From a virus: 64,000 bases of DNA. The translations under genes and the position numbers were made by a program. The notes beneath the pieces were generated by a model. It was given only the letters and a program-made list of their open reading frames with translations. It did not search any database and was not told where the DNA came from. Position 1 is the first letter of the stretch; every line of letters starts with the position of its first letter. Below, piece by piece: positions 4,356-29,433 of the stretch. The DNA is taken from positions 1 to 64,000 of the IMG/VR virus record IMGVR_UViG_3300021560_000013. The stretch is one strand, 5' to 3'.

Positions 4356-4407
4356 GTGTTAGCGTTCTGGGGAGCGGCGTACGGGCGAGATCCTGAGCGC
4401 CGCTCCT

Positions 4408-4438
4408 TTGTGAAGCTGCGCCGGACCGGCGTTACCGT
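4408..4438 (+). promoter_or_regulatory. Class-2 (putative late) leaderless promoter
   Basis: TTGTGA-N19-TACCGT, 6 nt before GTG 4445. Confidence 0.5.
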
Positions 4439-4444
4439 CCCCGT

Positions 4445-4828
4445 GTGGGCTACTGGGACCAGGTCGCCGTCCACGAGGCGCGAGGGCACTCGCGCGGGGT
4501 CTCGATGCTTGCCGCGCGCTACGTGCTGGACGAGCGCCGCGATCCGTCCCACTTCCCGTGGGACGAGCTTCTGCACCCGCGCACGCGCACCGGCGAGTTC
4601 GAGTTCAAGGGCTCGACCGAGGGGGACATTCCCGCCATGACCGCCAAGCAGCTGCACAAGATGCTGAAGAAGGCCGGGTTCTCGCGCGTGGGCCAGAAGG
4701 GCTCGCATGCGATCTTCAAGCATCCAGCTGGCGGGCGGCTCGTGGTCGTGCCGACGCACTCGGGCTCGATCCCGCGCGGGACGCTGCGGCACATCATCGC
4801 CACAGCCCAGACGCCAGCCCTTGCGTAA
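4445..4828 (+). CDS. hicA: HicA-family mRNA interferase domain with an N-terminal WDELLHPRxxxGEF leader; no HicB partner nearby
   Basis: MTAKQLHKMLKKAGFSRVGQKGSHAIFKHP...VVVPTH...IPRGTLRHII is the HicA signature. Confidence 0.8.
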   Translation: MGYWDQVAVHEARGHSRGVSMLAARYVLDERRDPSHFPWDELLHPRTRTGEFEFKGSTEGDIPAMTAKQLHKMLKKAGFSRVGQKGSHAIFKHPAGGRLVVVPTHSGSIPRGTLRHIIATAQTPALA

Positions 4829-4849
4829 GCGCACGATGTGTGCTATCTT
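4827..4849 (+). promoter_or_regulatory. Cassette-head element 3: palindrome + -10 (TATCTT), with no leader or RBS following
   Basis: AAGCGCAC-GAT-GTGTGCTA overlapping the hicA stop; followed by non-coding structured sequence. Confidence 0.85.
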
Positions 4850-4854
4850 GTAGG

Positions 4855-5347
4855 TGCGGTCCTGAGGGGCCGTGGCCCCGGAGTGGCTCTTCTCCGGAGC
4901 GGAGATCGAAGCGAGCGCCCGATCCGCAGGGCTGGTGCCGAGATCCCGGAGGACGCGGGTTTGATTCCCGCGCGGGGTAGAGACTTGAGGCTATTGGGAC
5001 GCCTCTCTAGGCCGGTGATCGCAGTAGGGTCGCGGACCGGCCCCAGACTTCGGGACCGCTAGTCCCTGGGCGCACGGCAGTGCGTAACCTCCCGACGGGG
5101 AGAGATCCTGGGCGCGAGAGCGAAATGAGCGGACCGAACTCCCGCCAGCAACCAAGACCGAGCGCCAACTCGTGAGGGGTCAGCGAAGGAGAAGCAGTTG
5201 GCAGCCCTTACTGCTGACCGCGCTGGCGGGGGAAACTTCGGCCAGGCGTGCCGCCCTTGGGGGCGCGTCCAGGGCTGGGGCGCGAGGCACGCCCGGCCTT
5301 GCAACAGGGTAGGCGAGTGCCTACCGCCGCCGGTAAAAACCTGGCGC
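4855..5347 (+). ncRNA. Candidate large structured ncRNA (~490 nt), class unknown
   Basis: Own promoter, no credible ORF. Many nested helices: 4856-4867/5048-5059, 5139-5149/5222-5232, 5178-5185/5212-5219, 5240-5252/5286-5298, 5308-5314/5319-5325. T-loop-like arm at 4955-4971. Confidence 0.65.
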
Positions 5348-5406
5348 TAGCGCGCATCGTGCGCTATGCTCTAGGTGGGGCCGAGAGAGCCCAACGACCG
5401 AGGAGA
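5348..5406 (+). promoter_or_regulatory. Cassette-head element 4
   Basis: TAGCGCGC-ATC-GTGCGCTA + TATGCT; hairpin GGGCCGAGAGAGCCC; CGACCGAGGAGA at 5395-5406. Confidence 0.85.
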
Positions 5407-5410
5407 CCTG

Positions 5411-5602
5411 ATGGAACGAGCCTTCTACGACCTGAGACCTGACGTGCCGTACGAGCCCGGCGAGATCGCCACGCTCCAGCACGAGGGCCAGATCGACCGC
5501 GAGCGCCAGGCCGTCGAGCGCCACTACCGCAACGGCAACGAGCCCGCTCTCAGGCGGGCGATCGCCCGCTGGCACGCACGAGAGGAGAGGCCCGAGCGAT
5601 GA
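5411..5602 (+). CDS. Hypothetical protein
   Basis: ATG follows the leader. Confidence 0.7.
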   Translation: MERAFYDLRPDVPYEPGEIATLQHEGQIDRERQAVERHYRNGNEPALRRAIARWHAREERPER

Positions 5603-5928
5603 CCGAGGAGTTCCGCAAGAAGTTCGACCCGTCGCAGTGGCGGGTCCTGCACCCGCAGCAGTTCGTGGACAAGCGCATGCAGTTGCGCCGCCCCGAGCGC
5701 GGCGGGCTCGTTCGCTACGGCGTGCGCGCCTACAGGGGCGCGATCGTCCGCAAGGGCGACGACGGCAAGCCGCAGCACGCCACCTGCAACCACGCTCACA
5801 GCAAGCCGGGCGCAGCGCGCAAGTGCGCTGAGCAGGAGGCTCGCAAACGCAATCGTGCGCTGGCGCGCGGCGTCCCTGACGGCGTGCCCGGCGGCTACTA
5901 CGGACAGGCGAAGGAGGTGACCGAATGA
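5599..5928 (+). CDS. Hypothetical protein (CxHxH...C motif)
   Basis: ATGA coupling. Confidence 0.7.
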   Translation: MTEEFRKKFDPSQWRVLHPQQFVDKRMQLRRPERGGLVRYGVRAYRGAIVRKGDDGKPQHATCNHAHSKPGAARKCAEQEARKRNRALARGVPDGVPGGYYGQAKEVTE

Positions 5929-6125
5929 CCGGACCCTACGAGGCAATCACGCAGTACGCGCTGAACACGCCGTTCCACAAGGTGATCGACCAGCGCTACC
6001 CCAACGCTCGCGCGAGCAGCTACGCGACGCGCGAGCAGGCCGAGATCGCCGCGATGCGGCTGAACGGCAAGTGGCTGATCGCTGAGGCCGACCGCCAGGA
6101 GCGGTTGGTGGCGTACGCCAGCTAG
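5925..6125 (+). CDS. Hypothetical protein
   Basis: ATGA coupling; its TAG stop begins the palindrome at 6123. Confidence 0.7.
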   Translation: MTGPYEAITQYALNTPFHKVIDQRYPNARASSYATREQAEIAAMRLNGKWLIAEADRQERLVAYAS

Positions 6126-23785: not shown

Positions 23786-24850
23786 ATGCACGGCAACCCC
23801 TACGGTGCCTTCGGCAGGCCGATCCGCCTGCTTGAGGCGTACCGCGAGTGGCGCGACGAGCGGATGCTGGAGGAGGCCGACTCCAAGGCCGACTTCGCAT
23901 CCTTCCTGTACGGACCCGTTCGCCAGTCGATGTGGCACGGCTACAGCCGCGCCCAGGCGCAGTACCAGCGCTACACCCGCGAGGAGTCCGCGCCGGACTT
24001 CCGCGATCGGCGTCTGCGTGGCCTGAACGGCCTGCTCGGGATCGGCTACGTGGGCGACCACGGGCACTACCCCGGACTGGCCCGGACGGACCGCCCGCCC
24101 GCCCACCTCTCGGTGGACACCTACGGCGGCATGTACTCGATCACCCGCCAGGCGATCATCAACGACGACTCGAACGAACTGCTGAACCGCAACCCGGCGG
24201 ACATGGGCTACGCGGCTGGCGTGTTCATCCTGCAGACGGTCATCGCGATGATCCAGAACCCGCCGAACGCGGGCGACGGCAACGCGTTCTACTCGGTCGC
24301 CGGGACCGGGCGCGGCAACCAGGTCGTCTCGCCGCTGTCGGAGGACAGCCTGGTGGATGCGATCGGGTTCATGGAGTCCCTGCTGGACGATGACGGTCGG
24401 CAGATCGTGGTCACGCCGCAGCTGCTGGTCGTCAAGAACGCCCGGATGCAGATGATCGCCCAGCGGATCCTGAACTCGACCCAGACCGGGACCAACGTGA
24501 CGTGGACCGGCGCTGCCGGTGTCGGCTCGCAGGTCATGGACAAGGGCACGATCAACCCGCTCGCCGGGGTCCTCCCCGCCGACGGCGTGATCCGCGACCC
24601 GTGGTTCTCGGACGCCAACGACTGGTACCTGTTCGCGGACCCGAACGACGTGCCAGCGTTCGCCGTGGGGTTCCTGAACGGGCAGTCCGAGCCGCAGGTG
24701 ATGCTGAAGGATCCGCTCGTGCGGATGGCGCTCGGGGCGGGGACGGACCCGTACTCGTTCGAGCTTGACGCCGTCGAGTTCAAGGTCCGCAGTGACTTCG
24801 GCGTCGCGCCGGTCGATCCTCGTGGGGCGTACCGCTCGATCGTGCCTTGA
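23786..24850 (+). CDS. Major capsid protein (Mu gpT-like)
   Basis: TYGGMYSITRQAIINDD, DGNAFYS, WYLFADP, VGFLNGQSEP, FKVRSDFG. Confidence 0.9.
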   Translation: MHGNPYGAFGRPIRLLEAYREWRDERMLEEADSKADFASFLYGPVRQSMWHGYSRAQAQYQRYTREESAPDFRDRRLRGLNGLLGIGYVGDHGHYPGLARTDRPPAHLSVDTYGGMYSITRQAIINDDSNELLNRNPADMGYAAGVFILQTVIAMIQNPPNAGDGNAFYSVAGTGRGNQVVSPLSEDSLVDAIGFMESLLDDDGRQIVVTPQLLVVKNARMQMIAQRILNSTQTGTNVTWTGAAGVGSQVMDKGTINPLAGVLPADGVIRDPWFSDANDWYLFADPNDVPAFAVGFLNGQSEPQVMLKDPLVRMALGAGTDPYSFELDAVEFKVRSDFGVAPVDPRGAYRSIVP

Positions 24851-27945: not shown

Positions 27946-29433
27946 ATGCCGGGGATCTTCTCGAAGTCGGCGCGGCCCCCACGTCCTGGGGCGTACTTCA
28001 ACTGGGCCGCGACGCCGGTCACGACCGTTCTGCCGTCGATCGGCTCGGTCGTGCTGCTGGCGATCGTTCACGACTGGGGTCCGGACGAGGTGATCGTCCC
28101 GACCGTCTCGCTCGCGGACTTCCAGGCGAAGTTCGGCCCGACGCAGAGCGCGGGCTACAAGGCGGTCATGCAGTGCTTCGAGGGTGAGGCGTACGCCGGT
28201 CGAGGCGGCGCGGGCACCGTGCTCGTGTACCGCATGACGGGCTCGGCAGCGGTGAAGGCGACGGTCTCGGTCCAGAACACCACGCCCGCCGCGTGCCTCA
28301 CGCTGACCGCGAAGTACCAGGGCAGCTACGGCAACAGCCTGGGCTTCCGCAACATCGCTGACCCGGTAGTCGGAGCCAACAACATCCTGCAGATCACGCT
28401 GGGCGGGACGGTCGTGGAGTCCTACTCGTACGTGAAGACCGACATCACCGGGCTCGCGGCGCAGATCAACGCGCAGTCGCAGTGGGTGACCGGCGCGATG
28501 CTGATCACCGGCGTGGCAGTCGCGGCGGCGAGCACGAGCACGCCGCCGACGGCGCTCGCCACCGGCAACGACGGCTCGACGCTCGTCGGCGCGGACTGGT
28601 CGCTGATGACCACGAACTGCTCCTCGGCGCGCTTCTCGCTGTTCTCCCCCTACGACCTGACCGACTCGACCATCCTCCAGTCGATCCAGGTCTGGGTGGC
28701 GAACATGAACGTCAACGGCAAGCGGTTCATGGCCGTGGTCGGTGGCGCGCTGAACGAGACTGCGTCGGCGGCGGTCACGCGCTCGACGGCGCTCCAGACC
28801 GTGCAGTCCGGCGCGTCGATCTCGGGTGCCGAGGACTTCATCAACCTGGGCGTCGGCTCGGTGCAGGACTCCGCGCTCGGCGTGCTGTCCACCTCGCAGC
28901 TGGCTCCGAGGGTCGCCGGGATCCTGGCGGCGCGCGGCGAGTCGATGAGCCTGACGTTCGCCCGGCTGGCCGGGGTGACGCCGCTGATCCTGCCGGACGA
29001 CCCGTCAGTGCTGCAGTGCTTCAACGGCGGGGTGGTGTGCCTCGGCCAGGACTCCAACCCGGACGCGCCGGTGCGCGTCGAGAAGGGTCTGACGGCGTAT
29101 ATCGGCGGCGACACGACCAAGCCGTACCTGATCTACCGCAACCCCAAGTTCCTGCGGACGATGCAGGGCATCGAGTTGGACATCACCGACTGGGCGACGA
29201 ACAACGCGATCGGCCTGCTCCAGGTCAACGATGCGACCCGTGCGCTGGTCGTCGGCCACGCGCACGAGGTGATCCAGGCGCGTGCCGACCGGGGCGTGAT
29301 CCAGGACGGGTTCACCGTCGGCACCGACCCGAGCCCGCCGCCGTCCGACATGGACGAGTTCGTGGCGCTGCTCTACGGCATTGCCTTCGGGCGCTCCGTC
29401 GAGCAGGTCTTCAACACCGTCTTTATCTCTTGA
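27946..29433 (+). CDS. Tail sheath protein
   Basis: RPGAYFN, DWGP, LTAKYQGSYGNSL, RVAGILA, EQVFNTV. Confidence 0.9.
   Translation: MPGIFSKSARPPRPGAYFNWAATPVTTVLPSIGSVVLLAIVHDWGPDEVIVPTVSLADFQAKFGPTQSAGYKAVMQCFEGEAYAGRGGAGTVLVYRMTGSAAVKATVSVQNTTPAACLTLTAKYQGSYGNSLGFRNIADPVVGANNILQITLGGTVVESYSYVKTDITGLAAQINAQSQWVTGAMLITGVAVAAASTSTPPTALATGNDGSTLVGADWSLMTTNCSSARFSLFSPYDLTDSTILQSIQVWVANMNVNGKRFMAVVGGALNETASAAVTRSTALQTVQSGASISGAEDFINLGVGSVQDSALGVLSTSQLAPRVAGILAARGESMSLTFARLAGVTPLILPDDPSVLQCFNGGVVCLGQDSNPDAPVRVEKGLTAYIGGDTTKPYLIYRNPKFLRTMQGIELDITDWATNNAIGLLQVNDATRALVVGHAHEVIQARADRGVIQDGFTVGTDPSPPPSDMDEFVALLYGIAFGRSVEQVFNTVFIS

Follow-up and report, generated by a model that had tools for sequence, protein, structure and literature searches.

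The non-coding gap at positions 4829–5347 of the analysed stretch of phage DNA (64,000 nt, hereafter the window) is headed by a promoter repeat and contains a tRNA-like RNA of about 105 nt, which constitutes a new tRNA-like RNA family with four members and which, among described RNAs, comes nearest to the TLD-only tmRNA of mycobacteriophage DS6A. In our estimation, the gap is probably an RNA cassette with its own promoter, an orthologue of the small tRNA island found in sister phages; its tRNA would have been lost and a processed tRNA mimic retained as its payload. The window corresponds to the initial 64 kb of an IMG/VR phage record (G000) of 110 kb, with 68% GC and an estimated completeness of 89%.

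The gap is bounded on the left by a gene for a HicA-domain protein (4445–4828; Pfam HicA_toxin, E = 4.5e-17) and on the right by the next cassette, with its promoter repeat at 5348 and its ATG at 5411. Positions 4829–5347 are non-coding, as had been claimed in an earlier note on this DNA. Codon periodicity is absent, the GC content being 0.6–0.8 in all three phases. A phase-resolved GC plot shows GC3 values of 0.9–0.97 in both flanking genes and no dominant phase from about 4830 to 5350, and with indels of 1–2 nt between homologues no frame is kept across the gap. An open reading frame at 5198–5350, with an SD-like AAGGAG and a TTG start, was discarded because of GC2 and GC3 values of about 0.7 and only about 0.8, respectively, and of its overlap with a conserved hairpin. 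The sequences quoted in the earlier note were found where it had placed them. A BLAST search of the INPHARED phages with positions 4400–5800 returned no match.

The repeat at the head of the cassette (4827–4855, plus strand) consists of a palindrome followed by a −10 box, TATCTT (4844–4849), with a predicted transcription start near G4856. The pattern is enriched, with six matches for 0.09 expected. In nine other copies located at cassette heads, a ribosome-binding site of the CCGACCGAGGAG type, in variant form at 6123 and 61661, follows within about 70 nt, together with a start codon. Comparison of the window copies confirmed that the one at 4827 is the only cassette-head repeat with neither a ribosome-binding site nor an ORF behind it; two degenerate matches to the pattern on the minus strand (39450 and 13135) likewise have no ribosome-binding site. 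The homologous cassettes of three sister phages (G001, G004 and G005) are headed by a conserved copy of the repeat. Judged from its sequence, the repeat at 4827 is a putative promoter.

Relatives of the phage were retrieved with the major capsid protein (23786–24850, Phage_capsid_4), which yielded 24 related IMG/VR loci with 82–93% identity, five of them records of 72–125 kb. When the gap was compared with the relatives' records by BLAST, two parts matched, besides short hits to the promoter repeat. Query positions 1–151 matched G005 (86%) and G001 (78%), and query positions 409–470 matched G001 (81%); window positions 5238–5298 also match G005. A first covariance model was built from the three 5′ modules of the window, G001 and G005. 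A fourth, diverged copy of the module, missed by BLAST, was detected with the covariance model in G004 (51 bits, E = 5e-9). The scores of the module in the four phages are 147, 145, 126 and 51 bits. A rebuilt model, R2, derived from the four-member alignment A4, revealed no further members in the 24 related records, and exact-pattern scans of viral, metagenome and genome contigs gave, beyond the three sister phages, just chance hits inside coding sequence. Searches for related loci with the HicA protein, a 109-aa protein and a phrog_5931 neighbour produced nothing useful (L002 and L003 are unrelated); the downstream 63-aa protein has eight more homologous clusters. The four members of the module family thus all belong to a single clade of uncultured phages.

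The conserved 5′ module spans about 125 nt of the plus strand (4856–4979) and consists of a leader hairpin and a tRNA-like core. The leader hairpin H1 (4856–4862/4867–4873, loop TGAG) is present in the window, G005 and G001; it is reduced in G004, where a longer, different leader is found instead. Such variability fits a leader that is discarded. The core, of about 105 nt (4875–4979), is defined by the covariance model, the alignment A4 and RNAalifold. It is closed by a 6-bp acceptor-like helix H2 (4875–4880/4973–4978), which is followed by a single strand with an invariant GG (4881–4889) and by a long arm. The latter consists of helix H3 (4890–4897/4946–4953), the inner hairpin H4 with a 2-nt bulge (4899–4908/4920–4927) and a partly conserved strand that ends in an invariant AGAUC (4928–4945). 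A T arm of 6 bp (4954–4959/4967–4972) with a 7-nt loop (4960–4966) comes next, and A4979 occupies the position of the discriminator. Both G+1 and A73 are invariant in the four members. H2 is contiguous with the T stem, the 6 + 6 = 12 bp corresponding to the length of a tRNA minihelix. There are no nucleotides between H3, the T arm and H2, and the order of the elements is that of the tRNA-like domain of tmRNA. The T-arm-like GCGGG-TTTGATT-CCCGC (4955–4971) pointed out in the earlier note is therefore real and conserved, and the reading of the RNA from the plus strand is upheld by the G-U pairs of the conserved helices (H1, H2, H3 and the T arm), which favour this strand.

Standard pairing is found in 97.7% of 133 cells of A4, and 7 of the 35 pairs are changed on both sides, counts that lean towards the structure since this alignment of four sequences was fitted to the model. 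The observed pairing was not equalled in any of 500 column shuffles. When the partners were slid by 1–3 columns, pairing was 34–58% with at most two double changes. RNAalifold predicted the same helices from a plain MAFFT alignment and from A4. The core is 68–84% identical among the members, and 20 of its 56 paired columns vary. Its identity to G005 (84%) and G001 (73%) is comparable to that of the adjacent coding DNA (79% and 75%, respectively). Within the T loop, positions 1 and 5 (54 and 58 in tRNA numbering) covary, two members having U-A and two C-G, which fits the 54–58 pair of T loops. All four members have a U at position 2 of the loop (U55) and a purine at position 4 (R57); the loops are non-canonical in three of the four. 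The 3′ tails differ (AGAG, AACCA, ACCCA and ACCG), so that CCA is not reliably encoded, as in the tRNA-Glu genes of the island described below. The minimum free energy of the module is no better than that of shuffled sequences (z = −0.1 for 4856–4985). The module is conserved and its helices covary, which is good evidence for the structure, not conclusive evidence.

The RNA shares with canonical tRNAs G+1, U55, R57 and a GG at the position of the D loop, and all four members have the 12-bp acceptor/T stem, 7-nt T loop and A discriminator of a tRNA minihelix. It is not a tRNA: there is neither a D arm nor an anticodon arm, only 9 nt separate the acceptor strand from H3, and both ARAGORN and the Rfam tRNA model RF00005 were negative. 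No Rfam family matched in the window at gathering or permissive thresholds, in keeping with the earlier note, which could not place the RNA in any class; the modules of the relatives had no match either, permissive threshold included. YrlA (RF02553) was the only tRNA-related weak hit (16 bits, E = 3, for a gathering score of 69). It resembles the window RNA in having a tRNA-like module with a T arm, but the ends of the window RNA pair as an acceptor helix and not as a Ro-binding stem. A Ro/Y-RNA was dismissed on the grounds that the YrlA score is far below the cut-off and that the phage record contains no Ro/TROVE gene.

The closest comparison is with tmRNA. The succession of an acceptor strand, a D-loop analogue, a P2-like helix (H3), a T arm and the second acceptor strand is that of tmRNA. 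The third acceptor pair is C-G in all four members, not the G3-U70 of tmRNA, and models of the tmRNA clan gave no hit at E values up to 10 in positions 4600–5600, nor up to 5 in the three relatives. A TLD-only ('CDS-less') tmRNA was described in mycobacteriophage DS6A by Hudson, Lau and Williams in 2014 (PMC4131195; PMC11915505), and a TLD-only RNA strongly inhibits tmRNA, perhaps via titration of SmpB (PMC4131195). This RNA was located at positions 28478–28560 of JN698994, where the Rfam tmRNA model, from the same library, scores 43 bits (E = 6.5e-14). It (L081:28478-28560) is unannotated in GenBank, is missed by ARAGORN and falls just under the gathering score of 47 bits. The DS6A and window RNAs are both phage-encoded, about 80–105 nt long and free of a tag reading frame, and both combine an acceptor helix and a T arm with a single-stranded analogue of the D loop, a single helix where a tRNA has its anticodon arm, and a short interior. 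Specific to DS6A are the acceptor GGGGCCG/CGGCUCC with G3-U70 and an ACUA tail replacing ACCA. The window RNA differs in its first pairs (G1-U72, C2-G71 and C3-G70), in having no tmRNA-type tail, in its 6 + 6 instead of 7 + 5 minihelix and in its branched interior of 48 nt; the model R2 does not match the DS6A RNA. In topology the window RNA thus agrees with TLD-only tmRNAs, but at the level of sequence it passes none of the tests for membership of that class. RNase P is known to process mimics that are not tRNAs, including tRNA-like stable RNAs from the tRNA region of T-even phages, the phage C4 antisense RNA and the phi80 M3 RNA (PMC11143913). These too are small stable phage RNAs, some of them co-transcribed with tRNAs, that mimic the acceptor/T-arm part seen by RNase P. 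They have no sequence relationship with the window RNA, the processing of which is a prediction.

In the three sister phages, a tRNA-Glu(CUC) gene was identified by ARAGORN and RF00005 108–550 nt downstream of the module. The cassette is ordered as promoter, tRNA-like RNA, spacer, tRNA-Glu(CUC) and terminal hairpin, the hairpin being seen in G001 and G005. A tRNA-Thr-like gene also lies shortly before the promoter in these two phages and together with tRNA-Glu makes up the whole tRNA set of their genomes. A 130-aa ORF of G005 (L028:1099-1491, + strand), antisense to the cassette, was recognised by eye as resembling HNH homing endonucleases from its CxxC...HH...CxxCH motifs. It sits between the module and tRNA-Glu and is missing from the other three phages. 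A 77-aa ORF lies between tRNA-Glu and the 3′ hairpin in G001, and a reversed HicA-like gene follows tRNA-Glu in G004. From the placement of tRNA-Glu, the tRNA-Thr-like gene and the HNH ORF, the sister locus is a small tRNA island of phages with a homing endonuclease as its guest. Phage tRNA islands with homing endonuclease genes are a known arrangement, which the position of the module between tRNA-Thr and tRNA-Glu, and the HNH gene in one relative, reproduce. The island is orthologous between the window phage and its sisters.

The tRNA-Glu(CUC) genes (L029:1774-1847, L069:1802-1875 and L028:1032-1106) have a G1-U72 wobble pair, a G discriminator and no encoded CCA. The tRNA-Thr-like gene (L029:1390-1510 in G001, L028:1694-1777 in G005), which was called by RF00005 in both phages and by ARAGORN in G005 only, has an extended variable region; in both phages a hairpin resembling a terminator, AGAGGGCCGGA...TCCGGCCCTCT, stands after it, just before the cassette promoter.

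No tRNA was found in the window or in the whole genome of the window phage (ARAGORN, 0 genes; RF00005, none at E up to 10), while RF00005 did detect the real tRNAs of the relatives. The upstream tRNA slot is taken by two protein genes, including that of the HicA protein. The slot of tRNA-Glu(CUC) corresponds to a variable centre of about 250 nt (4980–5236), unique to this phage, which has no similarity to anything available, either in its own genome or in the relatives, and no tRNA by ARAGORN or RF00005; a search for a degenerate tRNA-Glu yielded just local matches of 8–19 nt. The centre contains a stable branched hairpin (5139–5232) with an 11-bp closing helix (5139–5149/5222–5232) and no homologues. 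The fold of 5134–5236 has z = −3.9 on the plus strand, none of 200 shuffles being as stable, and z = −1.7 on the minus strand. The centre may be functional or filler. Within it, AAGACCGAGCGCCAACTCGTG (5155–5174, of which AAGACCGAGCGCC covers 5155–5167) resembles a degenerate cassette leader and ribosome-binding site, CGACCGAGGAG...ATG, and may, from this resemblance, be the relic of a lost small gene or a decayed cassette head. A direct repeat, CCCTGGGCGC (5064–5073) and CCTGGGCGCG (5107–5116), flanks two small hairpins and is maybe a small duplication.

The second conserved part of the cassette is a GC-rich 3′ hairpin (5240–5298) with a 14-bp basal stem, four compensatory pairs and z = −2.4. 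It is kept in G001 and G005, directly after tRNA-Glu or the small-ORF part. No U tract follows it and a simple terminator scan gives no call; a role in terminating the cassette transcript, or in stabilising its 3′ end, is probable. Two more small hairpins (5308–5346, z = −2.6) are found just before the promoter repeat at 5348.

Two genes in the phage suggested possible partners of the RNA. The HicA-domain protein is an orphan, no HicB having been seen in its vicinity, and is extended at its N terminus by about 60 aa. A nucleotidyltransferase of the PolyA_pol/CCA-adding type is encoded at G000:C1:88597-89013, inside an ORF of more than 1000 aa, though the genome is without tRNA genes. An enzyme of this type is present in the window phage, G001, G005 and G002, the last of which has no module, but none was found in the module-bearing G004. 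Linkage of this enzyme to the module was discarded on co-occurrence, as was linkage of the HicA gene, the distribution of which is given below.

The earlier note had interpreted the whole of 4856–5347 as a single RNA of about 490 nt, and a large multi-domain RNA of a new class, comparable to GOLLD and ROOL and tied together by a closing helix and a pseudoknot, might be argued from a non-coding, promoter-headed gap, from the appearance of the closing helix in the minimum free energy fold and from the unusual stability of 5134–5236. Helices 5139–5149/5222–5232, 5240–5252/5286–5298 and 5308–5325 of the earlier note are indeed present in minimum free energy folds. Over the whole 491 nt, however, the plus strand has a z-score of only −1.63, with 6 of 100 shuffles equally stable, and the minus strand folds better (z = −3.2); by sub-region, z is −0.1 for 4856–4985, 0.0 for 4986–5133, −3.9 for 5134–5236 and −2.4 for 5237–5300. 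The helix proposed to close 'domain 1' (4856–4867/5048–5059) does not stand out, as a helix of at least 12 bp with at most two G-U pairs arises in 23% of dinucleotide shuffles. Nor does the 10-bp pseudoknot, since two helices of at least 10 bp with at most one G-U pair were observed for 0.93 per dinucleotide shuffle. Helices of such size are frequent in shuffled sequences of 68% GC, and both long-range pairings are therefore unremarkable. Conservation in the three cassette-bearing relatives is restricted to the first 125 nt or so and to the 3′ hairpin of about 60 nt (4856–4979 and 5240–5298), with no Rfam match to large structured phage ncRNAs such as GOLLD and ROOL. The centre and the 3′ partners of both the closing helix and the pseudoknot are missing in all relatives, where the 5′ strand forms a local hairpin. 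The giant RNA is an artefact of the high GC content, and a single large molecule is very improbable. Even less credit can be given to a partnership of the RNA with the adjacent orphan HicA protein, in the manner of an antitoxin or as a mimic of its target. HicA enzymes cleave mRNAs and tmRNA. The HicA gene of the window phage ends at the cassette promoter, and its homologue in G004 (G004:C1:69137-69511, − strand) also abuts the cassette, in convergent orientation; but G001 and G005 have the module without HicA, and G002 has HicA (G002:C1:675-1049) without the module. It is about as hard to accept that the T-arm and acceptor segment is an attP core copied from the 3′ end of a host tRNA or tmRNA. 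Such 3′ ends are frequent in the attachment sites of phages, but here covariation between phages involves both the T stem and the 5′ acceptor strand, the segment lies behind a promoter in a tRNA island, and no integrase was seen among the neighbouring genes scanned.

Decay would be another way to account for the module, as a tRNA or tmRNA pseudogene in a dead tRNA island. The T loops are degenerate in three of the four members, D and anticodon arms are absent, CCA is inconsistent and the fold energy does not exceed that of shuffles. Seven compensatory pairs and 97.7% pairing at 68–84% identity nevertheless indicate selection on the fold, and the four members share one architecture that is not that of a tRNA, at odds with independent decay, so that a pseudogene appears quite improbable. 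A role in cis, as a leader or processing element for the downstream tRNA-Glu (an RNase P or RNase E entry site, or a folding chaperone) whose target was recently lost here, is unlikely rather than far-fetched. The module is upstream of tRNA-Glu(CUC) in all three relatives, and processing sites marked by tRNA-like 't-elements' are known (PMC1920247). The spacers between module and tRNA, however, are long (108–550 nt) and unrelated, with an antisense HNH gene within that of G005, and the module is intact, with all its helices, in a phage that lacks both island tRNAs and has had the surroundings of the module fully replaced.

The preferred reading is thus that of an RNA cassette that has outlived its tRNAs, for which we infer transcription, processing by RNase P and CCA addition, and a decoy or titration function. 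The window phage would have lost the island tRNAs and kept the tRNA-like RNA of about 105 nt behind an 18-nt leader hairpin, plus the terminal hairpin, the kept parts being separated by about 250 nt of presumed lineage-specific filler with one very stable hairpin domain. The RNA would fold as a three-way junction with the acceptor helix stacked on the T arm, the GG single strand replacing the D arm and the long branched arm replacing the anticodon arm. RNase P is predicted to cut between G4874 and G4875, removing the H1 leader; the 3′ end would be trimmed after A4979, and CCA would be added by an enzyme of the host or by the CCA-adding-type nucleotidyltransferase that the phage itself encodes. 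The product would be a stable tRNA mimic, unable to decode, that may occupy a protein that binds tRNA or tmRNA, such as SmpB, an enzyme that modifies the ends of tRNAs or cleaves them, or the phage nucleotidyltransferase.

Codon usage, or evasion of defences that cleave tRNAs, is the usual explanation for tRNA genes in phages. Here, a phage clade conserves only the half of a tRNA that is recognised by enzymes, and one member keeps the RNA without any real tRNA; retention after the loss of all tRNAs points to a function other than decoding. Beside the single published TLD-only phage RNA, that of DS6A, the family provides an independent example, which is not of the alanine type. The covariance model R2 and the exact predicted processing sites make the idea testable. 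As a more speculative extension, possible but to be held with considerable reserve, the RNA might be a dedicated tRNA/tmRNA decoy of a clade of high-GC phages of about 110–125 kb, titrating a host factor that reads the acceptor/T-arm part. If so, the target could be SmpB, with trans-translation being shut down as by artificial TLD-only RNAs, or a defence toxin that modifies tRNA ends or cleaves tRNAs. The decoy would work together with the CCA-adding/HD enzyme of the phage, and it would have been kept without any tRNA because its role would be in host takeover or counter-defence and not in translation.
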